Origin: Candidatus Aenigmatarchaeota archaeon | GTDB lineage: Archaea; Aenigmatarchaeota; Aenigmatarchaeia; QMZP01; QMZT01 | Assembly (NCBI GenBank): GCA_041489155.1 | Contig: JBGPQP010000010.1 | Coordinates: forward strand, 1-43,308 | DNA: 43,308 nt | Direction: 5' to 3' | In this document: positions 3-42,401 of the stretch, piece by piece | How the letters are laid out: each line of letters opens with the position of its first letter | How positions within the stretch are numbered: the first letter of the stretch is position 1 | Program-made: the position numbers and the translations under genes | Notes under the pieces: model-generated | The model's input: only the letters and a program-made list of their open reading frames with translations | What the model was told of the DNA's origin: nothing | Databases searched by the model: none

Positions 3-866
3 GGCTACACTTTCCAGCTCAGGATAGGCGACCCGTCCGGCGAGATAATGCTCCGCTACTGGGGCCCGGACAGCAAGGAAGTGGTCGAACAGCTTTACAA
101 CTCCGTGAAAAAGGACGACGTGGTTTACATCGCCGGAGAAACCACGCTTTACAACGGGAAGCTCTCGATAAACGTCAACCCGCCCACAGGGAAACTCAAG
201 GTCCTCGAGTCCCACGAATATGACAAGACTGATTTCATTCCGGAAAGCGAGAAGGACACGAAGGAGATGTACGCCGAGCTGACGAGACTCGTGGACTCCA
301 TCGAGAGCAAGCACCTAAAGGACCTGGCAAACTCATTCATCAGGGACCAGGAGTTCTCCGAGAAATTCGTCAGGCACCCGGCGGCGATGTACCGCCACCA
401 CGGCTGGCTAGGCGGCCTGCTGGAGCACACGCTGAATGTCGTCAAAATCTGCGACTTCTTCAAGGAAATCCATCCCGAGCTCAACCGCGACCTGATGGTG
501 ACCGGCGCATTACTGCATGACATCGGCAAGATACGCGAGCTCGAGGTCACGACGCACATCCGCACCTCAGTCGAGGGCATGCTTGTCGGTCATCTCGCCA
601 TAACATTCGAGGAAGTTTCTAGGAAGATGGAACTGCTCAAGACGCCTGAGGACCTGAAACTGAAAGTGAAGCACATGCTCCTGAGCCATCACGGCAAAAT
701 CGAGTATGGTTCGCCCAAGCAACCCGCGATTCCGGAAGCGCTGGCGGTCTATCTCGCCGACGACGCCGACTCAAAGATAACCGAGATGCTCACGCACATA
801 AAGAGGGCTGAAACCGAGGACGATTACGTTTATCTGGGAGAATTCGGCACCATTTACCTGAAGTGA
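3..866 (+). CDS. yhaM: 3'-5' exoribonuclease YhaM-like (OB-fold + HD domain), 5'-truncated by the window edge
   Basis: Frame is open from position 3 (GYTFQLRIGDPSGEIM). Motifs PAA..HH...GGLLEHT, LLHDIGK, LSHHG..EYGSP and AD..D are typical of YhaM/Cbf1. Confidence 0.9.
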   Translation, partial: GYTFQLRIGDPSGEIMLRYWGPDSKEVVEQLYNSVKKDDVVYIAGETTLYNGKLSINVNPPTGKLKVLESHEYDKTDFIPESEKDTKEMYAELTRLVDSIESKHLKDLANSFIRDQEFSEKFVRHPAAMYRHHGWLGGLLEHTLNVVKICDFFKEIHPELNRDLMVTGALLHDIGKIRELEVTTHIRTSVEGMLVGHLAITFEEVSRKMELLKTPEDLKLKVKHMLLSHHGKIEYGSPKQPAIPEALAVYLADDADSKITEMLTHIKRAETEDDYVYLGEFGTIYLK

Positions 867-8706: not shown

Positions 8707-11025
8707 ATGACATCGCGCAAATTTTTATTTGCCGCAATGATCTTGCTTTCCTTATGCTTTTGCATAAATTCTGTCAATGGGGAAATTCTGTGTTCATACG
8801 CAGGCCCTGAGACATCGCAGGATTACATGCGCCTTTACAATTTCACGGTTTCAGGCCCGTCGCCGCTGAAAGAGGACGACAAGATAACGGTGAGTTTCAA
8901 GCTGCAGAACTCTCATCCAAACCAGTCTGATATCAAACTCGGCAGCAAGGGTATTTTTGCCAGTGTGATAGACCCAAATAATATAGATTCTTCTTTTGGC
9001 TTCACCTACGCCGGCAGCACGGTGAAAACGGGCCAGATTCTTTCGGTACAGGTAACGAGAATACTGGACAAGCCGGGCACGTGGAAAATATGGCCGTCTT
9101 ATCACATTACTAACAAGACAGGCGAAACCCTAGGGCCGGATGAATGGCACGTATGCGTGCTGAATGCTGGTACAGTTGTTGTTGATGCCGACAAAGACGG
9201 CTTCCCCGACGCCGAAGACAACTGCCCTTCCGTCTCAAACCAGGACCAGAAGGATTCGGACAATGACGACCTGGGCGACGCATGCGACACATGCGACGAC
9301 CGCGACAGCGACGGCGACGGCATCAAGAACTGCCTTGACAAATGTCCGAAGGAGAAGGAGAATTACAACAAATATCTCGATGATGACGGCTGCCCCGACA
9401 ACGTCACTCTGGTGCAGCCCAATATTACGCTGCAAACGATAATGCCGAACCTGACACTCCAGCTCAACGCGACAAATCAGAGCGGCCAGAACCAGAGCAA
9501 GACCTCTGCCAAAACCATAATCATAAAGCTGCCGACTTCGACCGCTTCGACACCGCAGCCCGTCACCATAAACCAGCCGACAAGGGACACAGTGCGTGAA
9601 GGGCCTCTTGGTGATGCGGCGTTCGAGGACGAGGACAACGACAGCGTGGCGAACATCCAGGACCGCTGCCTGGGCACGCCTGCAGGGAGCAGCGTTTACG
9701 ACAACGGCTGCAGATGCAGGGACACGGACAGGGGCATGGAGATATACGTTGCAGGCAATGTCACCCATCTGGACGGCCCCATGGAATTCAACGATAGCGA
9801 CCGCTGCTGGGGCGACACGCTCAGGGAGAATTTCTGCGAAGCAAACGACACGCCGGGCTTCAGGGTCATGACGTGCGATTACGGCTGCGAGAACGGCGCT
9901 TGCAAAATACCTTTTGTTGCCGTTTTCAGGGAACTTGAACCTATGATACCCTTGGGCGCATGCTCTGCCGGCGGGGCGACTTGCGCGGATGGCATTCAAA
10001 ACCAGGATGAGACAGGGATTGATTGCGGAGGCAAATGCCCTCCATGCAATACGCGCTGTTCGACGGCGACTAAATACGCCCCTGCCGACACGCCGTGCAC
10101 CGGCCATTTCGTGGGCGGCGGGACTTATGTGTCGGAGAGCGGGCGCAGGGTGAGCGGCGTCTTCACGGTATCCGACGAAAGCAGAAGCGACATGCATAGA
10201 ATCAATCTCACCTGGACCGATGGCGGAGGCGAGTGCAACTGCCAGTTCTACGAAGTCTGCGACGAGGGGCTGGATTTCGTGGTAGACGAGGCGCTCGACT
10301 GCTGCAGCTCAAGGAACTGGGACGAGGTAAACCGCACCGTTGACCCCAACCTGTGCAAGGAAGCCCTGAGAGGCGGAGGCTCGAATTGCAAAAAATGCGT
10401 GGGGCTTTACATCATCAAAGGCCTGGGCACATACGCGCGATGGATGAGAGGCTATTTCCGCAATGCGGGGATGAATTATTATGTTTGCGGCGCGTGGGTG
10501 GAGGCCGCGCCAGCGGAGCGCCTGATCAACGAGCACAGAACCGGCATATGCAGGGACTATTCTGGCGCGCTAACGACGCTCCTCAGGAAAGCAGGGTATT
10601 CGCAGAGTGAGATCTCGAATTTCTGCGACGGAGCGCACTGCTACAACCTTGTGAAACTGCCCGGCAACACGAAATACCACGTGGTCGACACGACGGGAAA
10701 CAGTCATGATATCAACCTAGGCGGCCTGCCAAGCGGCTACCCTTACTGCGATAACCTGAACGGAACAAGATACTGCTACCAGTACCAGCGCGGGCTGTCG
10801 CTCTACACGGGGCCGATTGCGGACATGGCGGAATACTGGAGAGTCGTCGACAGCGGCGGAGTATATGCATATCCCCACAAGCCCGAATGCGGCGGCTACG
10901 GCATGCCCGGCAGGAGAATCTTGGACTTCGCTCCCGAGTGCGGGCCGGGCGTCGCCTGCGCAAGGGACAACTTCAGAATCCCAGACTGGGCGCCGCCTTT
11001 AAGCGAGATAATAGGATGCAGCTAA
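8707..11025 (+). CDS. Secreted Cys-rich surface protein with thrombospondin type-3 Ca-binding repeats and a C-terminal transglutaminase-like domain
   Basis: Signal peptide; DADKDGFPDAEDNCP..DSDNDDLGDACD repeats; GICRDYS...LLRKAG...HCYN...VVDTT triad. Confidence 0.85.
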   Translation: MTSRKFLFAAMILLSLCFCINSVNGEILCSYAGPETSQDYMRLYNFTVSGPSPLKEDDKITVSFKLQNSHPNQSDIKLGSKGIFASVIDPNNIDSSFGFTYAGSTVKTGQILSVQVTRILDKPGTWKIWPSYHITNKTGETLGPDEWHVCVLNAGTVVVDADKDGFPDAEDNCPSVSNQDQKDSDNDDLGDACDTCDDRDSDGDGIKNCLDKCPKEKENYNKYLDDDGCPDNVTLVQPNITLQTIMPNLTLQLNATNQSGQNQSKTSAKTIIIKLPTSTASTPQPVTINQPTRDTVREGPLGDAAFEDEDNDSVANIQDRCLGTPAGSSVYDNGCRCRDTDRGMEIYVAGNVTHLDGPMEFNDSDRCWGDTLRENFCEANDTPGFRVMTCDYGCENGACKIPFVAVFRELEPMIPLGACSAGGATCADGIQNQDETGIDCGGKCPPCNTRCSTATKYAPADTPCTGHFVGGGTYVSESGRRVSGVFTVSDESRSDMHRINLTWTDGGGECNCQFYEVCDEGLDFVVDEALDCCSSRNWDEVNRTVDPNLCKEALRGGGSNCKKCVGLYIIKGLGTYARWMRGYFRNAGMNYYVCGAWVEAAPAERLINEHRTGICRDYSGALTTLLRKAGYSQSEISNFCDGAHCYNLVKLPGNTKYHVVDTTGNSHDINLGGLPSGYPYCDNLNGTRYCYQYQRGLSLYTGPIADMAEYWRVVDSGGVYAYPHKPECGGYGMPGRRILDFAPECGPGVACARDNFRIPDWAPPLSEIIGCS

Positions 11026-13358: not shown

Positions 13359-15479
13359 TCACTCCATCCTGGGATAAGGTCCTTCTGAGGCGACTTTCTG
13401 GAAGACCAGCTCTTTCAGTTCGGTCAGGTCGGACAGCGCATTGAGCTTTATCTTCTTGCCGGAGACCGTGTAAAGCACGTCGCCTATGTACAGGCTTCGC
13501 TTTACTGAATACTGGTCGCCGTAGTAATAGTAGCCGCTCTTCATGAATGTCTGGTCGTTCGCGTCGTAATGGGTGATTCGCCCTTTAAGGACAAAGCCGT
13601 TCTCGAGCGTGAGGTCGTAGACGTACGCTCCTTGGTAGACGTATTCGCCGTAAGGCGGCCACCAGCCCTCCTTCTGGGTCTCCTGCTTCTGCGCGTCAGT
13701 CAGCTCTGCCAGGAGGATTGGCACGACCAGCAGGTTCTTCTCCCTGTCAAACAGGAAGGCCTTGTGGTCCTGCAAAGCGTAAGAATCCGTGCCCCTGTCG
13801 CCTATCACGACCTTGTGCATCTCCACCGGGTTTGCGACGTCCGTCACGTCGAAAAGTGCGATTTTCACTCCCTGGTACCATGCGAAATCGCTCGGCATGC
13901 CTTCCTGCGATTCAGCGTCGACAGCTTCCTTGCCTATGCCTATGATGTGGTTTTCATCGTATGGGTGCAGATAATCGGAGTAGCCGGGTATCTTGAGCTT
14001 GCCGAGGATCTTCGGGTTCGCGTGGTCGGAAAGGTCGAGCACGAAGAACGGGTCGATCTTCTTGAACGTCACGAGATAGCCTCGCGCGCCCATGAACCTT
14101 GCCGAGTATATCGACTCGCCGGGAGCGATGTTCTCTATCTTGCCGCTCATGCTCAGGTCGTCAGCGAAGATGTAGATGTTGTTGGACGTCGTGCCCTGCA
14201 CGCCCATCGAGCCTCTGAAAAGCCTGCCGACGGTCGTCGCAATGCGGAAATGCGAATCGTATTCGTCCATGGAAAACTGGTTCAGTATGTGGCCGGGCGC
14301 CTCCATCTTGCCCACGTACGAGATGGCGCCATTACTCAGGCTGAACTTGTGTATGATGGTTTTTTCCTGCGGCTCCTCGCCCTCACTTAACCAGAACGGG
14401 TAATTCTGCTCTGCTATGTAAAGATTTGAAAGCGACGCGTATATGTTCTGGCCGGAGCCGATTATCACTTCCTTTTTGACTTCTAACTCCGGGTTTTCCA
14501 TCGAGATTGAAGCGACGGTTATGAAGTTCTGCGGATTGACCGGCTCAAAGTAAGCGACGTCGTCGCAACCGCATGTCTGCGTGTAATTCGTGTCCTCGCC
14601 CACTTCGGCGAGCTTCCTGTCCCTGTAGAGGGGTATGATTTCCTGTCCCGTCTGCTCTGGAGGAGCGTTCTGGAATTTTTCCATGACCCAGTATTGCGGA
14701 TAGGAATTGACGATGAAATAAACATCCGGGCCTATTTTTCTGGAGGAAACATAACTTCCCTCGAAATCAACGCTGCGAATCAGGCTCGGGTTCGTCTTGT
14801 CGCTGACGTCCCATATCTGGACTGTCGCGAAGCTCGTGTAGCGGTATGGATAATAATCGGGAGCTATCATTTTCTCTGCCGCACTTGAACCCGACTGCAC
14901 TACAGGCTCTTCTCCCTCGATGGGAATCTGCCTGCTGGTGGAGCCGAAAATCAGGACCTTTGAGTTGTGGATGAAAATCTCCTGCGGATAGAATTCTCCG
15001 AGATCAGTCTCGCTGAGGATCGCCGCGTCATCCGCAGGGTACGCTTTCGCTATAACAAGAGTCGAATTCGTACCGTAATAGCCCTGGGAAGGCAGTGTAT
15101 ATATGTATTCACCGTCCGTCTTCACTATGTCGGCCTCGTCGACGCCCGCGACCTGTATGTTAGTCTCGGAGTAGGCAACGCCAGCGCCGTTGGCAGAGTC
15201 CTTGGCTGCGCTTTCAGCTGTCATCATCGGCGCGACGCCGCCAAGAGTTTGCGCGAAGCCACCTCTTGTCATGTAAAATAAATTAGCCTTCTGCTGGGCA
15301 TCCTTGAAGGTGGCGGTGATGCCGCTGCAAGAGCTGAACCTTGGAACATTGCTGAGCGGCACGGGATTTGTCTTATAGGCATAATAAGAAACAACGCCTC
15401 CGACAACAAGAGCTATTATGAGGAACGCGGTCACTGCCGTGAAACCCTTGGACTTCGAACGAGAGAATTTTCCTTTCAT
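13359..15479 (-). CDS. Secreted beta-propeller domain protein
   Basis: YSETNIQVAGVDEADIVKTDG, NQFSMDE, ESIYSARF, GKLKIPGYSDYLHP and DHKAFL are typical of this family; N-terminal TM. Confidence 0.9.
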   Translation of the reverse strand: MKGKFSRSKSKGFTAVTAFLIIALVVGGVVSYYAYKTNPVPLSNVPRFSSCSGITATFKDAQQKANLFYMTRGGFAQTLGGVAPMMTAESAAKDSANGAGVAYSETNIQVAGVDEADIVKTDGEYIYTLPSQGYYGTNSTLVIAKAYPADDAAILSETDLGEFYPQEIFIHNSKVLIFGSTSRQIPIEGEEPVVQSGSSAAEKMIAPDYYPYRYTSFATVQIWDVSDKTNPSLIRSVDFEGSYVSSRKIGPDVYFIVNSYPQYWVMEKFQNAPPEQTGQEIIPLYRDRKLAEVGEDTNYTQTCGCDDVAYFEPVNPQNFITVASISMENPELEVKKEVIIGSGQNIYASLSNLYIAEQNYPFWLSEGEEPQEKTIIHKFSLSNGAISYVGKMEAPGHILNQFSMDEYDSHFRIATTVGRLFRGSMGVQGTTSNNIYIFADDLSMSGKIENIAPGESIYSARFMGARGYLVTFKKIDPFFVLDLSDHANPKILGKLKIPGYSDYLHPYDENHIIGIGKEAVDAESQEGMPSDFAWYQGVKIALFDVTDVANPVEMHKVVIGDRGTDSYALQDHKAFLFDREKNLLVVPILLAELTDAQKQETQKEGWWPPYGEYVYQGAYVYDLTLENGFVLKGRITHYDANDQTFMKSGYYYYGDQYSVKRSLYIGDVLYTVSGKKIKLNALSDLTELKELVFQKVASEGPYPRME

Positions 15480-27462: not shown

Positions 27463-27837
27463 TTAAATTTCTATCTCCCTCGAACTGAGCCATTCTGATG
27501 CAGCAGAGCTTTCTTCCTGAAGAAAGGCGCTCAGTCTCCTTTCCCTGTAATCCCCGCTCAGGATCTCCCTGAAAAGGGATTTCATATCGCCAAAGCTTAC
27601 GTACTTCTGATGCACCACTCCGCTTGCCTGTCCGCCGAATATCTCGCGCAGGGCTTTCGCATGTATCCTCATATCTTTGATTTTTTTCCTGATCGTCGCG
27701 TAGGCCACTTCCCTTCCGCTGAGTCTGTAGAGCAGGCCTCTTAAATCTGCAAGCGGGTAATGGCGGTTAAGAAGCGCCTTGCCTCTGTAGATATCCGTCA
27801 ATACGTCTCTTCTGTGGAAATCTTTTTCCGTTTCCAT
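27463..27837 (-). CDS. Hypothetical protein inside the tRNA cluster
   Basis: 124-aa ATG ORF (METEKDFHRR...) filling the gap between tRNA-Val and tRNA-Glu. Confidence 0.6.
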   Translation of the reverse strand: METEKDFHRRDVLTDIYRGKALLNRHYPLADLRGLLYRLSGREVAYATIRKKIKDMRIHAKALREIFGGQASGVVHQKYVSFGDMKSLFREILSGDYRERRLSAFLQEESSAASEWLSSREIEI

Positions 27838-27851
27838 AATATAAGAAAGCA

Positions 27852-27924
27852 TGGGTCCGGCCGGAGTCGAACCAGCGATCTTCTGCACGTCAAGCAGACG
27901 TCATAACCACTAGACCACGAACCC
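27852..27924 (-). tRNA. tRNA-Val(GAC)
   Basis: GGGTTCG/CGGACCC-A; TCTGC-TT-GAC-GT-GCAGA; TTCGACT T-loop. Confidence 0.95.
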
Positions 27925-27989
27925 AGTTACACATTATTGTTCTGTCATGTCTTATAAGATTTTTTGCTGAAGCTTTTTAAAAGCTTCCA

Positions 27990-28061
27990 TGGGCCGGGAG
28001 GGAATTGAACCCTCGACCTTCGCCGTGTGAGGGCGACGTCATACCACTAGACCACCAGCCC
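27990..28061 (-). tRNA. tRNA-Val(CAC)
   Basis: GGGCTGG/CCGGCCC-A; TCGCC-CT-CAC-AC-GGCGA; TTCAATT T-loop. Confidence 0.95.
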
Positions 28062-28063
28062 AG

Positions 28064-28149
28064 CGCTGGGAGCAGGATTCGAACCTGCGCAGGCTTTCGC
28101 CCATCCGCTTTCGAGGCGGGCGCCTTGAACCGGGCTCGGCCATCCCAGC
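28064..28149 (-). tRNA. tRNA-Ser(CGA)
   Basis: GCTGGGA/TCCCAGC-G73; CCCGC-CT-CGA-AA-GCGGA; long variable arm GGGC-GAAA-GCCT. Confidence 0.95.
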
Positions 28150-28198: not shown

Positions 28199-28399
28199 AT
28201 GAAAGTCTGCGTTCTTTTTTCAGGCAAGACGAAAATTGTGGAAATGCCAAAGGAAGCGAAAGCGATAGATGCACTGCGAAAAATGCGCGTCAATCCAGAG
28301 ACCGTGATAATAAAAAGGAGAGAAGAGATACTTCTGGAGAACGAAACCCTGAAAAACAACGACCGGATAGAGCTGATAAAAGTCGTGTCAGGCGGGTAA
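28199..28399 (+). CDS. Ubiquitin-like sulfur carrier (ThiS/MoaD/SAMP family)
   Basis: 66 aa, beta-grasp pattern, C-terminal VSGG. Confidence 0.9.
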   Translation: MKVCVLFSGKTKIVEMPKEAKAIDALRKMRVNPETVIIKRREEILLENETLKNNDRIELIKVVSGG

Positions 28400-28400
28400 T

Positions 28401-29474
28401 TCAGGCTTCAAGAAAATCATGCACATTTTCTACGAACGCCCTGTATTTTCCTTTTGCTTTGTGATCCTTGAAAGGTTCCCATTCGCGATGGTTCTTGTAA
28501 ACATTATGATCCGCGACAAACCTGTCAATGTATTCCCCCTCCGGCGTCATTATCTGCTGGCAGATGAGATGGTCCGAGGGGGTGACAGTACCTTCCTTGG
28601 TTTTTATTATGCGCGGCATTCCCAGCACAATCCTGCACAACGGCGTTTTGTAATCAGGCGTTCTCCTGTGCTGGATGTCGTAGACACCGAAGCCGTTCAG
28701 TTTGTGCGTGAAAAAATATACCAAGTCGTCTTCCATGTTTTCTCTGCTGGTAGTGATGATCCTTGACCTAAGGACGTCCTGTATCATGGAGTTCGTGAAA
28801 ACGTATCTCTCGAAAGCCTCTCCTCTCAGTTTTTCCCTGTCCGCTTCTTCTATGCTAGTAACCGCCATCCTGGCAATTTTCGTCCATGTGCTTTGCGGTG
28901 TTTTATAATCGGTCGCCAGAAGCCTTATGCAGCAATTCTTGCCAGGCACATAAACAGTTGTGTTTGCCTGCATGCTGTCAGGGGAGTGGCACGGCCCTCC
29001 GTGAACCCATTCGTATCTGGCTATTTTTTCTTTCTGTAATTTCAGTTCACCGAGAATCCGCTTGTCGCCTGAGAGCCACCTTTCCAAAAATGTAATCATG
29101 TGCTTCCTCAGCTGGTTATAGTCGGTGAAATGTTCTGTGATCTTGTCGCTTATCTGATAAGAGGACAAAACGCGTTTGGCAAGCTCCTCCAGAACAGTCA
29201 TGCCATCTTCCTTTCTACGTGAGAGCTCTTCGCGCATCCTAGCGGAGCCTACCTTTTTCAGCTCTGCGCCGTTCAGCTCTGTGCCGCAATCCGAGGCCCC
29301 GGTGAGCATGAAATATATCTCCGGTGTTGTGAGCTCGGGCAGTATTTCTCCAGGGCTCAGCCCTTCCTTGAAAAGATATGAAACATGATTGAACCTTTCG
29401 TCCAGATACTCTCCGAGTTTTCTTTCAAGGGGCTTGTCTCTCATCATTTTTTTTAATTTTTTGTCTTTTGACAT
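28401..29474 (-). CDS. Hypothetical protein with a degenerate RelA/SpoT synthetase-like C-terminal domain
   Basis: Ordered motifs YKTPQSTWTK, IQDVLRSRII, PDYKT, QQIMT and ADHNVYK. Confidence 0.6.
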   Translation of the reverse strand: MSKDKKLKKMMRDKPLERKLGEYLDERFNHVSYLFKEGLSPGEILPELTTPEIYFMLTGASDCGTELNGAELKKVGSARMREELSRRKEDGMTVLEELAKRVLSSYQISDKITEHFTDYNQLRKHMITFLERWLSGDKRILGELKLQKEKIARYEWVHGGPCHSPDSMQANTTVYVPGKNCCIRLLATDYKTPQSTWTKIARMAVTSIEEADREKLRGEAFERYVFTNSMIQDVLRSRIITTSRENMEDDLVYFFTHKLNGFGVYDIQHRRTPDYKTPLCRIVLGMPRIIKTKEGTVTPSDHLICQQIMTPEGEYIDRFVADHNVYKNHREWEPFKDHKAKGKYRAFVENVHDFLEA

Positions 29475-29552
29475 AATTTTATCATGTTTCGGTAGTTAAT
29501 AAATCTTGCGATGACCGCCCACGCTTTTATATCACTCAGGCCTTCTCTAATT

Positions 29553-30497
29553 ATGATCACGGAGAGGGCGGTTTTCGGCTGCACGAGATGCGGTAAAAAG
29601 GCGATCCACCACAGGAAATACGAGGGCTCCCTGCTGTGCAGGCGGCATTTTCTGGCGAGCGTCGAGGACAAGGTCAGGCGCACGATACGTAAGAGCCGCA
29701 TGCTTGAACGCGGCGATATTGTCGCTTTCGCGCTGTCCGGCGGTAAGGACTCTTCGGCGGCGATGTACATGCTGAAAAAAATGTTCGGCGGGAGGAAGGA
29801 TCTTAAGTTCTTTGCGATAACCATCGATGAAGGCATCCCCGGCTATCGCGACGAGAGCCTGCGCATCGCGAAACGCCTGTGCAAGAAGCTGTGCGTCAAA
29901 CATCATGTTTTTTCCTTCAGGGAAGAGTTCGGCAAATCCCTGAGCGAAAAGGTCAAGGAAACAAGGAAATCGGATCGTTGGGAGGGCACGGCCTGCACGT
30001 ATTGTGGGCTCGCGCGCCGCTGGCTGCTGAACAGAAAGGCGAGAGAACTGGGGGCGAATAAAATCGTTTTCGGCATGAACTTGGACGATGAAATTCAGGG
30101 TATAGTGATGGATTACGTGCGCGGCGATCTCGTACGTCTCTCGAGGATGGGCGGCGAGCCCATCGTGAAGAACAGGCTCTTCGTAAGGCGAATAAAGCCG
30201 TTCATGGAAATCCCTGAAAAGGAGATAGGCCTTTATGCTTTGCTGTCCGGGCTCGAAATACAGGAAAACGAATGTCCGTACATCGAGGGCCCGCGCTTCC
30301 GCGTGCGCGACTTCCTCAACGACCTCGAAGCCGAGAGCCCGGGCATGAAATTCTCGACCCTCAACACCTTCCACCGCCTGCTGCCATCGGTGAGAGAAAT
30401 CGTTAAACAGGGCGGCGTCGAAATCATCCGCTGCTCCAAATGCGGCGAGCCCAGTTCGCAGAGGGTCTGCAAGACCTGCGAGCTGTGGAGAAAATAG
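29553..30497 (+). CDS. ttuA: tRNA 2-thiolation protein (TtuA/NcsA/Ctu1 family)
   Basis: N-terminal CxxC..CxxH, SGGKDS PP-loop, IDEGI.GYR, CTYCG, CPY and C-terminal CxxC..CxxC. Confidence 0.92.
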   Translation: MITERAVFGCTRCGKKAIHHRKYEGSLLCRRHFLASVEDKVRRTIRKSRMLERGDIVAFALSGGKDSSAAMYMLKKMFGGRKDLKFFAITIDEGIPGYRDESLRIAKRLCKKLCVKHHVFSFREEFGKSLSEKVKETRKSDRWEGTACTYCGLARRWLLNRKARELGANKIVFGMNLDDEIQGIVMDYVRGDLVRLSRMGGEPIVKNRLFVRRIKPFMEIPEKEIGLYALLSGLEIQENECPYIEGPRFRVRDFLNDLEAESPGMKFSTLNTFHRLLPSVREIVKQGGVEIIRCSKCGEPSSQRVCKTCELWRK

Positions 30498-39465: not shown

Positions 39466-39584
39466 TTGTCTCTACCGATTGTTATAAGAAATGTAATTTT
39501 TTTAAACTATTACTGCCCCAGGAATTGCCCAGGGGAGGGCAAACGCCGGAAATAATTTCTTATATCAGGCAACAAATTAATTAT

Positions 39585-42401
39585 ATGCACGATTACTTTC
39601 TGCCTTTCGGCCCGCAGCATCCCGCACTCGCCGAGCCGATGCACATAAAACTTCGGGTCGATGGAGAAACCATCGTCGGCTCGGAGCTGGTTCTCGGCTA
39701 CAACCACAAGGGCATCGAGAAATCTTTCGAGGGCAGACCGTGGGCGAAGGGCGTTTATCTCAGCGAGCGCGTGTGCGGCATCTGCCTACCAAAAAACGAG
39801 GAAATAATAACCGATGACGGGAACATAGTCAAAATTGGCGATTACGTCGAAAGACAAATTGGAAATTCGCATGAAAATTTCATATCCCTGGAAGCGAAAG
39901 ACAACTTCAAAGTTTTTTCCCTCAAAAAGTCATGCCTTGTCGAACCCGGAAAAATAACGCATGTCCAAAGGTTCCGTTCCCCTGAAAAACTGCTGGAAAT
40001 CAGGACATGGGCTGGTATAAAAATCAGGGCTACACACGCGCATAAAATACCCATAGACTCCATTTCTGGGCCCGAATACATAAGAGCGGAGCAGCTGAAG
40101 ATTGGCGATATGTTATATTCCGCAAGGCATTTCAGAATAAAAAATGTATGGGTGCCCTTGATAATCGATCTGCTGCCGGAGGAATTTGTAATAAAGCTGG
40201 ATAAAAGCGATCTGGATAAATTTAACAAAAAAATAAGAGACAGATTCGGAACGTTTTCAAACGCCGAAAGGGCTTTGAAAATTTACAGGACCAAACTCGG
40301 CCAAGGCAATCTAAGGAATGGCATCGGGATGGGGGAATTAAAAAGCGTATGCAGGGAAGTGGGAATGAACTATAAGAGATTAAAAAAAGGAATAAAATCG
40401 ATAAGCAACAACAGGAACCATTTTGTTCTGAAAAACGCACACATAGATGAAGATTTAATGTATCTTATGGGCCTCATTGCCTCTGATGGAAGCTTTGGCA
40501 AGATGAGGAATAAAGGACACCGCGATTACAGATTGTCCTTCGTAAACAAAGACAAATCTCTGCTGAAGGAGTTTGAAAAAACCTACAAACGCCTCTTTCC
40601 GCATAAAAAAATTGAAAGGGGAATCCTAAAAAGCGGCGCTGAAATTTTGAGAGTTTCAAATCCCATACTATCAGAGGTTGCGAAATCCCTTGGTTTCAGG
40701 GTTCTTGACAATAAAAAGGAGGACATAAAGCCCATATTCAGGATGCCGGAGAGGCTGATATCATCTTTCATAGGAGGTTATTTCGATGGCGATGGGCACT
40801 GCAAACTGGAAAATAAAAGTGCGAGAATACTGATTTACTCGAAAAGCGAGAAGTTTCTTTCAAGGCTCCAGATGATTCTGAAAAGGCTCGGCGTGGCCAG
40901 CGCTCTGAAGAAAAGGGGCCGCTCGGGATTTAAAAACAACTTTTCTTATGTGCTTTTCATCAACAACGCCGACGACGTTCTGGCATTTTCCTCGAAGGTA
41001 AAAAACAGATTGCCCAGAAAAAGGAACATACTCGATGATATCAAGATTTTCTCGCAAAAATCCAGGAGGTTCCACTCCAAATTTCAGATGTGCCCGTTGT
41101 GGGCAAACAAGTTGTTTGCTGATTTAAGGAAAAGCAGAAACATACCGCTGAACAGATTTCATTGTCCGTCGCATCTGGGTAAAATAGAGAAGGGCAAGAG
41201 GGTAAACAAAAAAACCATGTTATTTTATTTGAAAGATCTGGAAAAAATCATCGGAAAGCGTGACGAGACCGATGAAATAAAAAAGGCTATTTCGCGGGAC
41301 TTTTATCTTGATAAAATAAAAAGCATAAAAGAGATAAATTCATCTTCAAAATTCGTTTATGACCTGACGTTAAATCCGACACATAATTTTATCGTAAATG
41401 GCGGTTTGGTTGTTTCAAACTGCGGCCATTACCACACGTCGTGCTATTGCCAGGGCATCGAGAGCCTCATGGGACTCGAAATCCCCGAACGCGCAGACTA
41501 CATCCGCCTGGTCATAGCCGAGCTGGAAAGGCTGCATTCGCACCTGTTCGGTCTGGGCATCGTTGCGTGGGAAATCGGTCTGGATACGCTTTTCCATTAC
41601 ATCTTCCGCGACCGCGAGCTGGTCATGGACGCGCAGGAGCTGCTGACGGGGAACCGCGTGCATTTCGTGATGAACGTGATTGGCGGCGTCAGAAAGGACT
41701 TCAGCCTCGGGCAGGCGGGAGAGGTTGAAAGGGCGCTCAAGAAGCTGGAGGACAGGCTTGATTATTATCTGGGCATTTTCAGGAACGATGCGTCTGTGAA
41801 AAACAGGCTCAGGCACATAGGCTACCTCTCGAAACCCAAGGCGAAGCACTTCACGCCGGTCGGCCCGAACGTGCGCGCGTCCGGTATAGATTACGACGTC
41901 CGCGAGACCGGCTATTCCGCCTACAAACATCTCAACTTTAAGCCGATCATCGGCCAGGGAGGCGATGCGCTCGAACGCTGTCTCATTCGCTTCAGGGAAT
42001 GCAAACAGTCCATCGGCCTCATACGCGCTTCGCTCGCGAACATGGAAAGGCTGCCGAAGGAAACCAGCCTGAAAGTCCCTGCGGCAATAAACATCAGACA
42101 AGGCCTCGAGACCGTCTCGAGGGTCGAGGCGCCCAGGGGCGAACTCCTGTATTACATCAAAGCCGCAGGCGACCGGCCATACAGGGTGAAGATACGCACG
42201 CCGACGTACCAGACGTTCCATGCGCTTGAGGAGATGCTGAAGGGTTATGCAATCGCAGACGTCCCGGTCATACTCGCTTCGCTCGATCCGTGCTTTTCCT
42301 GCACCGACAGAATGACCTTGGTCGACGCCAAGACGAGAGAGGAAAGAATAGTCACAAAGCATGAAATACTGCACATGGGAGGAGACAGTCATGGCCGCTG
42401 A
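39585..42401 (+). CDS. Group 4 (energy-converting, complex I-related) [NiFe]-hydrogenase large subunit, intein-containing
   Basis: GPQHP..EP, GY.HKGIEK, ERVCGI|C, ELERLHSHL, EAPRGE, RVKIRTPT and DPCFSCTDR with a C-terminal extension; about 392 aa after splicing. Confidence 0.93.
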   Translation: MHDYFLPFGPQHPALAEPMHIKLRVDGETIVGSELVLGYNHKGIEKSFEGRPWAKGVYLSERVCGICLPKNEEIITDDGNIVKIGDYVERQIGNSHENFISLEAKDNFKVFSLKKSCLVEPGKITHVQRFRSPEKLLEIRTWAGIKIRATHAHKIPIDSISGPEYIRAEQLKIGDMLYSARHFRIKNVWVPLIIDLLPEEFVIKLDKSDLDKFNKKIRDRFGTFSNAERALKIYRTKLGQGNLRNGIGMGELKSVCREVGMNYKRLKKGIKSISNNRNHFVLKNAHIDEDLMYLMGLIASDGSFGKMRNKGHRDYRLSFVNKDKSLLKEFEKTYKRLFPHKKIERGILKSGAEILRVSNPILSEVAKSLGFRVLDNKKEDIKPIFRMPERLISSFIGGYFDGDGHCKLENKSARILIYSKSEKFLSRLQMILKRLGVASALKKRGRSGFKNNFSYVLFINNADDVLAFSSKVKNRLPRKRNILDDIKIFSQKSRRFHSKFQMCPLWANKLFADLRKSRNIPLNRFHCPSHLGKIEKGKRVNKKTMLFYLKDLEKIIGKRDETDEIKKAISRDFYLDKIKSIKEINSSSKFVYDLTLNPTHNFIVNGGLVVSNCGHYHTSCYCQGIESLMGLEIPERADYIRLVIAELERLHSHLFGLGIVAWEIGLDTLFHYIFRDRELVMDAQELLTGNRVHFVMNVIGGVRKDFSLGQAGEVERALKKLEDRLDYYLGIFRNDASVKNRLRHIGYLSKPKAKHFTPVGPNVRASGIDYDVRETGYSAYKHLNFKPIIGQGGDALERCLIRFRECKQSIGLIRASLANMERLPKETSLKVPAAINIRQGLETVSRVEAPRGELLYYIKAAGDRPYRVKIRTPTYQTFHALEEMLKGYAIADVPVILASLDPCFSCTDRMTLVDAKTREERIVTKHEILHMGGDSHGR
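39783..41420 (+). mobile_element. Intein (546 aa) with LAGLIDADG homing endonuclease
   Basis: Block A CLPKNEEI, block B ATHAHKI, blocks C/E LMGLIASDG and FIGGYFDGDG, block F VYDLT...HNFIVNG, block G VVSN|C; visibly AT-richer than the flanks. Confidence 0.95.

Follow-up and report, generated by a model that had tools for sequence, protein, structure and literature searches.

The window analysed here, meaning the whole 43,308-nucleotide stretch of contig JBGPQP010000010.1 from a Candidatus Aenigmatarchaeota archaeon, carries on its reverse strand a gene that a preliminary description, made from the sequence alone, had called a divergent RelA/SpoT synthetase-like orphan. We consider it probable, with moderate confidence, that this gene encodes a lineage-restricted and extremely diverged homologue of the synthetase domain of RelA/SpoT homologue (RSH) enzymes. 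The product is predicted to be a transferase that binds a nucleoside triphosphate (NTP) together with Mg and has altered chemistry, and the gene is accessory. The open reading frame (ORF) has an ATG start and encodes 357 aa (41.7 kDa, isoelectric point (pI) 8.5).

28401..29474, reverse strand: whole gene, from the ORF list, with homologues P0002-P0005, L014 and L021 and a ratio of nonsynonymous to synonymous substitution rates (dN/dS) of about 0.2 against genome G001

This is a real gene under purifying selection. Compared with its 66%-identical orthologue in G001, it has a dN of 0.23 and a dS of 1.15 over 351 codons, and differences between G000 and G001 at codon positions 1, 2 and 3 are 0.22, 0.19 and 0.43, so that the third position differs about twice as often as the first or second. 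For comparison, the dN/dS pairs between the same two genomes are 0.13/1.10 for the neighboring NcsA gene and 0.24/2.24 for the neighboring SAMP2 gene. Contigs from three further sediment runs are letter-identical to the gene over the parts they cover.

Predicted fold and sequence resemblance

The evidence for an RSH fold comes chiefly from structure prediction. AlphaFold2 models were made without templates from an alignment of 7 sequences, for the query (model 1; predicted local distance difference test (pLDDT) 73.4, predicted template modelling score (pTM) 0.76) and for the family member in genome G013 (model 2; pLDDT 75.8, pTM 0.77). The reference structures were the small alarmone synthetases (SAS) SAS1/RelQ and SAS2/RelP (PDB 5DEC/5DED, 6FGK, 6EWZ) and the toxic SAS (toxSAS) enzymes CapRel and FaRel2 (7ZTB, 9ERV, 8PU4). 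A Foldseek search of the PDB with model 1 gave 30 matches at E <= 0.001, and all those listed were SAS1/RelQ, SAS2/RelP or their homologues; the best was 5ded_E (E 1.8e-5), followed by CapRel at 0.068 and FaRel2 at 0.10. With model 2, the top 10 matches were all SAS (E 3.5e-3 to 1.5e-2). In the structural comparison SAS structures scored 10.8 and CapRel 7.9. For both models the superposition on SAS/Rel structures is better than that on any other fold, other nucleotidyltransferases included, and the likeness to a RelA/SpoT synthetase therefore passed the superposition proposed for it in the preliminary description. Among the viral structures of BFVD there was no match at E <= 0.001, and the weak named ones were RelA/SpoT, Tas1 and YjbM. 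Judged by predicted structure, the resemblance to RSH is clearly beyond chance.

Residues ~75-335 are predicted to form the RSH fold, closest in shape to the small alarmone synthetases, and are preceded by an extension with four short helices.

28470..29252, reverse strand: RSH (SAS-like) synthetase-fold core, residues 75-335 (model ranges 74/81..332)
29253..29474, reverse strand: N-terminal extension, residues 1-74, with four short helices (H3-12, H20-36, H41-47, H50-57) outside the SAS alignments

In VIA comparisons the alignment starts at residue 74-82 for SAS and at residue 43/44 for CapRel. In the A4-type subfamily described below, the extension has only 36-42 aligned residues. The RSH motifs had been placed in the C-terminal half; they do lie there, and the RSH-like core is wider than that half. 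All five of the quoted motifs are present, namely DYKTPQSTWTK at residues 189-199, IQDVLRSRII at 231-240, RRTPDYKT at 270-277, ICQQIMT at 304-310 and ADHNVYK at 321-327.

Taken from sequence alone, the resemblance would be marginal. When the profile of the seven family sequences was aligned by hhalign with an 80-sequence profile of SAS proteins from DPANN archaea resembling L004 (described below), it gave E 0.017 at a probability of 2.7%, with a P value of about 0.02, and the real score was reached in none of 77 column shuffles. In this alignment LLATDYKTPQSTWTKIAR pairs with LvaQRLKRlpSIikKLsR and SMIQDVLRSRI with LSQMQDIgGCRAV, and only these first two motifs are convincing. Against the Aenigmatarchaeota proteins L008 and L009, all five motifs are collinear (E 0.019, 131 columns, probability 2.4%). 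In a protein-language-model atlas, the set carrying RelA_SpoT holds seven of the 30 whole-protein matches and 14 of the 30 named matches of the C-terminal half.

The gene had been regarded as an orphan, a status that it loses, as seven sequences in two subfamilies are now known. These are the A2-type (G000, G001, P0003, P0004) and the A4-type (G002/P0005, G013, G008). An exhaustive phmmer search of 1.84 billion cluster representatives recovered three relatives at 66, 46 and 37% identity, and together with three word-index searches it returned P0002-P0005 only. The 320-325-aa proteins of G002 and G013 adjoin NcsA and were found through synteny; BLASTP fails to link them with the query (E 0.71 and 3e-6), and hhalign joins the two subfamilies at 97.8% probability (E 9.4e-13, 288 columns). 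Running the family profile against the 371 genomes of the phylum brought in G008 (E 1.3e-41), which puts credible members in 5 of the 371, all within one family-level group. Identity across the seven sequences is 16-25%, with only 11 invariant columns, and all known members come from uncultured DPANN archaea of sediment or groundwater. Scans of metagenome and viral contigs gave no new relative, and a further scan gave one identical copy of the G013 gene.

Searches of Pfam, NCBIfam, PADLOC and PDB sequences with the protein and its relatives produced no meaningful match. Three weak matches were taken as chance: exonuclease V among the PHROGs (E 0.01, P0002 only) and, at the head of the PDB profile results, uS12 (E 0.05, profile positions 154-191) and RPRD1B (E 0.085). 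Of two weak matches in other genomes of the phylum, both at E 0.002, the one in G267 is an unrelated Fe-S protein, judging from its sequence, and the one in G283 has two internal stop codons. The published full texts searched contained no description of the family, though family lists in the supplements of the surveys cited below could bear on its novelty.

Putative active-site residues and competing readings

Five segments of the protein are candidate counterparts of the RSH active-site motifs.

28869..28910, reverse strand: residues 189-202, DYKTPQSTWTKIAR, from the translation; end of strand 183-190 and start of helix 193-213
28761..28778, reverse strand: residues 233-238, DVLRSR, at strand 235-241; pairs with MQDIgGCRAV, and with DIIRTRI of L008/L009
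28641..28664, reverse strand: residues 271-278, RTPDYKTP, a flexible loop between strands 263-270 and 279-285; putative G-loop, from topology
28548..28574, reverse strand: residues 301-309, DHLICQQIM, with strand 303-309; candidate counterpart of the RSH E-x-Q-I-R-T strand, pairing with ikIEIQltt of L008/L009
28497..28508, reverse strand: residues 323-326, HNVY, at helix 324-330; pairs with HKYYE of L008/L009

The first segment resembles the phosphate clamp, an equivalence drawn from hhalign (the SAS profile and L008/L009) and from strand order in the model. The spacing K191-x3-S195-x3-K199-x2-R202 is identical to that of K80, S84, K88 and R91 of RelP, which are described as binding the triphosphate, with D107 and E174 holding Mg (PMC5794853). 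In FaRel2 the triphosphate is reported to be held by R64, K66, S70, K74 and R77 and Mg by D90 (PMC11782079). K191 and K199 are present in 7/7 family members, position 202 is R or K in 7/7, and S195 is kept in 4/7 (else N or R). D233, also in 7/7, corresponds to the Asp that binds Mg (RelP D107, FaRel2 D90). It begins the pattern D-x-x-[RK]-x-[RK], which stands in place of the RSH pattern D-x-x-G-x-R and has a basic residue at positions 236 and 238 in all seven.

Two catalytic positions had been described as substituted, the ATP-site Arg and the catalytic Glu, and this is borne out across the family. Position 189, two residues before K191 and occupied by Arg in RSH enzymes, is D in 3/7 and G in 4/7. 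In RSH enzymes position 305 is the Glu of E-x-Q and the second Mg ligand; here three members have C and four have S. At position 307 five members have Q and the other two have H. The equivalence of 305 and 307 to E-x-Q comes from hhalign against L008/L009 and from strand order. Four residues upstream of 305, D301 is invariant in 7/7.

RRTPDYKT had been proposed as the G-loop. Model topology and hhalign against L008/L009 agree with that placement, whereas hhalign against the L004-like SAS profile puts the motif one strand earlier. On topological grounds the segment is a putative G-loop, or acceptor site. Its pLDDT falls below 50 at residues 272-276. P273 is conserved in 7/7 and Y275 in 3/7, with S in 1/7; the A4-type members are gapped there and have Y or W beside P273. 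H323 and Y326 are invariant in 7/7, as is D317, and we take HNVY to be the counterpart of the RSH H-x-x-Y-K motif. Of the 11 invariant columns, three (K191, K199 and D233) correspond to residues that bind ATP or Mg in RelP and FaRel2, and a fourth, P273, corresponds to the G-loop.

The clamp lysines and the Mg-binding Asp are thus among the 11 columns that stay invariant at 16-25% identity, which argues for a working nucleotide site. The donor-nucleotide site appears to be largely kept, with its phosphate clamp (K191/K199/R202), D233 and R238, and the protein would bind an NTP-Mg complex and most likely still transfer from it. Since Glu is replaced by Cys/Ser, Arg by Asp/Gly and Gly by Arg/Lys throughout the family, it should not act exactly like a (p)ppGpp synthetase, and altered chemistry, or an altered donor or acceptor, seems the better expectation. 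From its place at the start of the same strand as 305, D301 is a candidate for the replacement second acid. By analogy, the leading guess for the acceptor would be RNA or the 3' end of tRNA, because there is a toxSAS precedent, because CapRel gives the longest structural alignment and because the protein is basic. In toxSAS enzymes a basic surface guides the acceptor stem of the tRNA. All seven members here have a pI of 7.7-9.2, with a net charge of +2 to +10 over residues 76-165; the L004-like SAS are also basic (median pI 9.5).

In FaRel2, R64 is described as contacting base, ribose and phosphates, G93, R95 and Q147 as contacting the base, E145 as conferring adenine specificity and Y128 as lying in the acceptor loop (PMC11782079). 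Y128 is the G-loop aromatic that stacks on the base of the acceptor. The D90G and Y128A variants of FaRel2 are reported to be non-toxic (bioRxiv 10.1101/2021.04.30.441581).

A number of results weigh against an RSH synthetase homologue with transferase activity. At the sequence level, the proposed hidden Markov model (HMM) check against RelA_SpoT came back empty: hmmscan against Pfam gave no PF04607 row for P0001 at E <= 1 or for P0002-P0004 and the G013 and G002 members at E <= 10, hmmsearch --max between the family and RSH found nothing significant in either direction, and PDB profile searches with the family returned no RSH. The hhalign probabilities against RSH profiles are only 2-3%, and the real SAS score was reached in three of 81 twelve-column block shuffles. 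Aligned by itself, the A4 subfamily falls out of register with the SAS profile (E 0.08) and gives E 0.33 against L008/L009. At the structural level, both models derive from one shallow alignment, the five runs for model 1 range from 47 to 73 in pLDDT, and the Foldseek template modelling scores are low (0.24 query-normalised, 0.40-0.45 target-normalised). Model 2 has no Foldseek match at E <= 0.001, and its VIA margin over terminal uridylyltransferases (TUTases) is small (8.1 vs 6.1). The equivalences of motifs 3-5 and the role suggested for D301 follow strand order rather than residue-level superposition. Finally, the Mg-binding Glu is described as strictly conserved in RelP/RelQ (PMC5794853), and a protein that lacks it could have no catalytic activity at all.

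This last point leads to the alternative of a pseudo-enzyme, an RSH-fold scaffold that lost catalysis along with the Mg-binding Glu and the Arg and now serves as a nucleotide sensor or binding partner. The uniform C/S at the Glu position and D/G at the Arg position would suit such a protein. So would the account of RelP, in which Mg is held jointly by Asp107 and Glu174 and the catalytic residues are strictly conserved in RelP/RelQ (PMC5794853), and so would a genome in which no alarmone hydrolase (HD_4) was found. However, the phosphate-clamp Lys residues, the Mg Asp, D301, D317, H323 and Y326 are all invariant at 16-25% identity, which is unexpected for a decayed site, and the replacement at the Glu position is itself restricted to C or S. 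We therefore regard loss of catalysis as unlikely.

A second alternative is really a sub-case of the RSH-homologue reading that we prefer: a toxSAS-like growth-arrest toxin or defence effector that, like FaRel2 and CapRel, would add pyrophosphate to tRNA 3'-CCA ends, with the extra N-terminal helices as a regulator or tRNA-binding part. No antitoxin-like partner is visible, however, as the flanking genes are SAMP2 (convergent, 1 nt away) and NcsA (divergent), and the protein ends 22 residues past the core, so that a fused C-terminal antitoxin (pseudo-zinc-finger) domain is absent. At E <= 10 PADLOC recognised no family in the 4 members scanned, and viral contigs contained no relatives. SAS structures outscore CapRel, FaRel2 reaches a Foldseek E of only 0.10, and evolution between G000 and G001 is no faster than that of SAMP2. 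A toxin of this kind is accordingly a minority prospect.

Rather improbable is an RSH enzyme with Cys/Ser for Glu and Arg/Lys for Gly that has a new chemistry and a macromolecular target in the translation or tRNA-thiolation apparatus (tRNA, SAMP2 or NcsA). Such an enzyme might use another donor nucleotide, perform phospho- or nucleotidyl-transfer, or form a covalent Cys/Ser intermediate, and if it existed, episymbiotic DPANN archaea would gain a switch on tRNA function. Another candidate, a nucleotidyltransferase-fold E1 replacement that adenylates SAMP2 instead of UbaA, was rejected because the genome has a ThiF/UbaA gene (PF00899 E 2.4e-64).

The protein might also not be an RSH at all. It could have another or new alpha/beta fold, or be a different nucleotidyltransferase of the Pol-beta type, with AlphaFold2 having forced it, from a shallow alignment, onto the closest fold known to the program. 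The small VIA margin of model 2 and the empty HMM searches would fit this. The models nevertheless superimpose best on SAS/Rel structures, and the classical Pol-beta features are missing from the protein: there is neither a G[SG] turn followed by a DxD metal triad nor a best match to NTP_transf_2, TUTase, CD-NTase or MenT. We think a different fold quite improbable. An ordinary small alarmone synthetase making (p)ppGpp or (p)ppApp and merely too diverged for HMMs is very improbable, for although the best structural matches are housekeeping SAS1/SAS2 and RelA/SpoT genes are reported as common in several DPANN phyla (PMC8407392), the signature Mg Glu, Arg and Gly are replaced family-wide, no HD_4 hydrolase to remove the product was found in a genome that is 89.65% complete, and presence in 5/371 phylum genomes is too patchy for a housekeeping signalling enzyme.

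If the diverged RSH homologue that we favor is correct, strong constraint preserves the phosphate clamp and one of the metal ligands in this family while three signature residues are swapped, a natural experiment on which active-site parts are dispensable. Structure prediction also picks up RSH-fold proteins that escape profile HMMs, and censuses of archaeal alarmone enzymes may therefore undercount. Practical value is limited because only seven sequences are known, all from uncultured DPANN archaea.

Locus history and genomic setting

The source genome (1.13 Mb) is represented in this window by core chromosome, with genes for CysRS, RFC, CDC48, L7Ae, S5/L30/L15, SecY and Bud32. The immediate neighbors of the RSH-like gene are related to tRNA or to its thiolation.

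27851-27925, reverse strand: tRNA-Val(GAC), ARAGORN
27989-28062, reverse strand: tRNA-Val(CAC), ARAGORN
28063-28149, reverse strand: tRNA-Ser(CGA), ARAGORN
28199..28399, forward strand: ThiS/SAMP2-like ubiquitin-like sulfur carrier, 66 aa, GG C-terminus (PF02597 E 4.4e-6)
29475..29552, no strand: divergent intergenic region, read from the sequence
29511..30497, forward strand: NcsA/TtuA-family tRNA 2-thiolation protein with PP-loop domain and TtuA LIM domain, divergent from the RSH-like gene

The SAMP2-like gene and the RSH-like gene lie tail-to-tail with 1 base between their stop codons, and the same junction is found in G001 and G008. The NcsA/TtuA gene scores 208 bits against NCBIfam NcsA and 185 bits against TtuA, each under its cut-off. 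Its true start is likely the ATG at 29553, as suggested by the N-termini of homologues. In the divergent intergenic region, TTAATAAAT at 29497-29505 lies 23-31 nt upstream of the ATG of the RSH-like gene and TTTTATAT at 29525-29532 lies 21-28 nt upstream of the ATG at 29553. Either could be an archaeal TATA box serving a leaderless transcript, a promoter function proposed from position and letters. A scan for sigma-70 promoters and terminators was set aside, since it does not apply to archaea.

Across the order we surveyed 30 NcsA loci. In 12 of them SAMP2 directly precedes NcsA in the same orientation. The family gene sits antisense between the two in three (G000, G001, G002). In G013 it adjoins NcsA, with SAMP2 1.7 kb away, and in G008 it is tail-to-tail with SAMP2, with other genes preceding NcsA. 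The G004 locus has no insert, and in the remaining 10 of the 30 loci no SAMP2 was found at E <= 1e-3. The distribution of the five carriers over an NcsA tree of 21 rows takes 4 label changes, of which well-supported branches force at least 2, and shuffled carrier labels did as well in 136 of 500 trials. G002, with an A4-type gene, is sister to G003 (support 100/100) inside a clade with G000 and G001, whose genes are A2-type.

The family gene is therefore a patchy accessory insertion, antisense, into a variable slot of an otherwise contiguous SAMP2-NcsA tRNA-thiolation operon, and its position beside tRNA-related genes is for that reason probably incidental. The tRNA and tRNA-thiolation setting pointed out earlier was accurate as to the neighbors, but a functional link is unsupported given this patchy antisense insertion and an operon that is contiguous in 12/30 loci. 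Similarly, the three tRNA genes (27851-28149) sit just past SAMP2 as seen from the RSH-like gene and are neighbors only.

The SAMP2-NcsA slot seems to accept different cargo. In G003 the same antisense slot holds a 130-aa ORF (L016:2548-2940, forward strand) with no Pfam match, which was rejected as a family member for lack of similarity (hhalign E 0.87). The f5 genomes G035 (L134) and G056 (L140) have a co-oriented ORF of 222-230 aa between SAMP2 and NcsA that by eye looks like a HAD-type hydrolase.

Other genes also flank NcsA in related genomes. In G009 one of them encodes a 325-aa protein with no Pfam match (L118:2462-3436, reverse strand), whose C-terminal part resembles by eye L014:3461-3901 (reverse strand), the ORF downstream of the family gene in G013. 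In G008 one encodes a 268-aa NTP_transf_2/Polbeta-like nucleotidyltransferase (L117:665-1468, reverse strand; E 5e-4).

Several other features of the window were recorded. By ARAGORN coordinates, tRNA-Val(CAC) and tRNA-Ser(CGA) abut with zero spacer. A 141-aa ORF at 27463-27888 overlaps tRNA-Val(GAC) at the ORF 5' end; if it is a gene, its start must be further downstream. Inserted in a 958-aa NuoD-like protein (39525-42401, forward strand; Complex1_49kDa E 1e-61) is an intein (Intein_splicing E 5.5e-14) that carries a homing-endonuclease domain of the LAGLIDADG type (LAGLIDADG_3 E 1.3e-19). Two proteins are possibly located at the surface: a 772-aa protein with thrombospondin type-3 repeats (8707-11025, forward strand) and a 706-aa protein with a Beta_propel domain (13359-15479, reverse strand; E 9e-167).

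Comparison with known systems

For a long time the RSH synthetase domain was credited with making (p)ppGpp alone. It is also described as making (pp)pApp and as pyrophosphorylating tRNA, with further chemistries expected among its 30 SAS subfamilies (bioRxiv 10.1101/2021.04.30.441581). For archaea, Atkinson et al. 2011 (PMC3153485) report few RSHs, and (p)ppGpp is reported as not detected in the archaea tested in one account (PMC8646023). The view that RSH enzymes are rare in archaea, repeated in the preliminary description, fails for DPANN. RelA/SpoT is reported in 19-69% of genomes of four DPANN phyla, a list in which Aenigmarchaeota does not figure (PMC8407392), PF04607 matches 6 of 201 genomes of the phylum studied here, 4 above the cut-off (gathering score 27 bits), and L004-like SAS are present in many DPANN metagenome-assembled genomes. 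A whole-genome PF04607 search gave 0 candidates in the source genome, compared with matches in 11 of 14 control genomes. The absence of a hydrolase domain, also described earlier, stands: the protein has no HD domain and the genome, at 89.65% completeness, has no HD_4 match. In the same order, L006 (G028:C26) and L007 (G024:C1) carry RelA_SpoT domains of 29.6 and 27.2 bits, both over the cut-off, inside giant open frames of 3213 and 2264 aa.

Compared with SAS1/RelQ and SAS2/RelP, the family protein has no detectable sequence similarity, has C or S for the Glu of E-x-Q, and has R or K for the Gly of D-x-x-G-x-R. Its other additions are a stretch of about 15 residues (helix 218-229) that separates the clamp helix from the Asp strand, a hairpin insert at 286-302, 74 more residues at the N-terminus and one more helix at the C-terminus. 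Like CapRel and FaRel2, it is RSH-fold by prediction, basic, patchy and accessory, and CapRel gives the longest structural alignment (166-178 residues), reaching the N-terminal helices of the family model from residue 43/44 on. The L004-like SAS (358 aa, PF04607 E 2.9e-16) has a similar length and an RSH core and occurs in the same order, in G029, as well as across DPANN archaea and bacteria. Unlike the family protein, it has the canonical motifs RLKR..S..K, QDIGGCR, PKKDGYRS and EVQIRS.

The closest relatives by sequence register, though with weak statistical support, are the Aenigmatarchaeota proteins L008 (L008:1099-1959, forward strand; 286 aa, PF04607 E 3.5e-5, 24.5 bits) and L009 (L009:1150-1953, forward strand; 267 aa, PF04607 E 7e-4, 20.3 bits), both below the cut-off. 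They share with the family the lack of an Arg two residues before the first clamp Lys, an Arg for the motif Gly at +3 (D-I-I-R-T-R in L008, D-I-I-R-T-L in L009) and a spacer of ~32-34 residues from clamp Lys to Asp. Unlike the family, they keep the Glu of E-x-Q (IEIQ), are shorter, and belong to other families of the class, in 2 of the 371 genomes. L008 and L009 may be evolutionary intermediates between a canonical SAS and the family described here.

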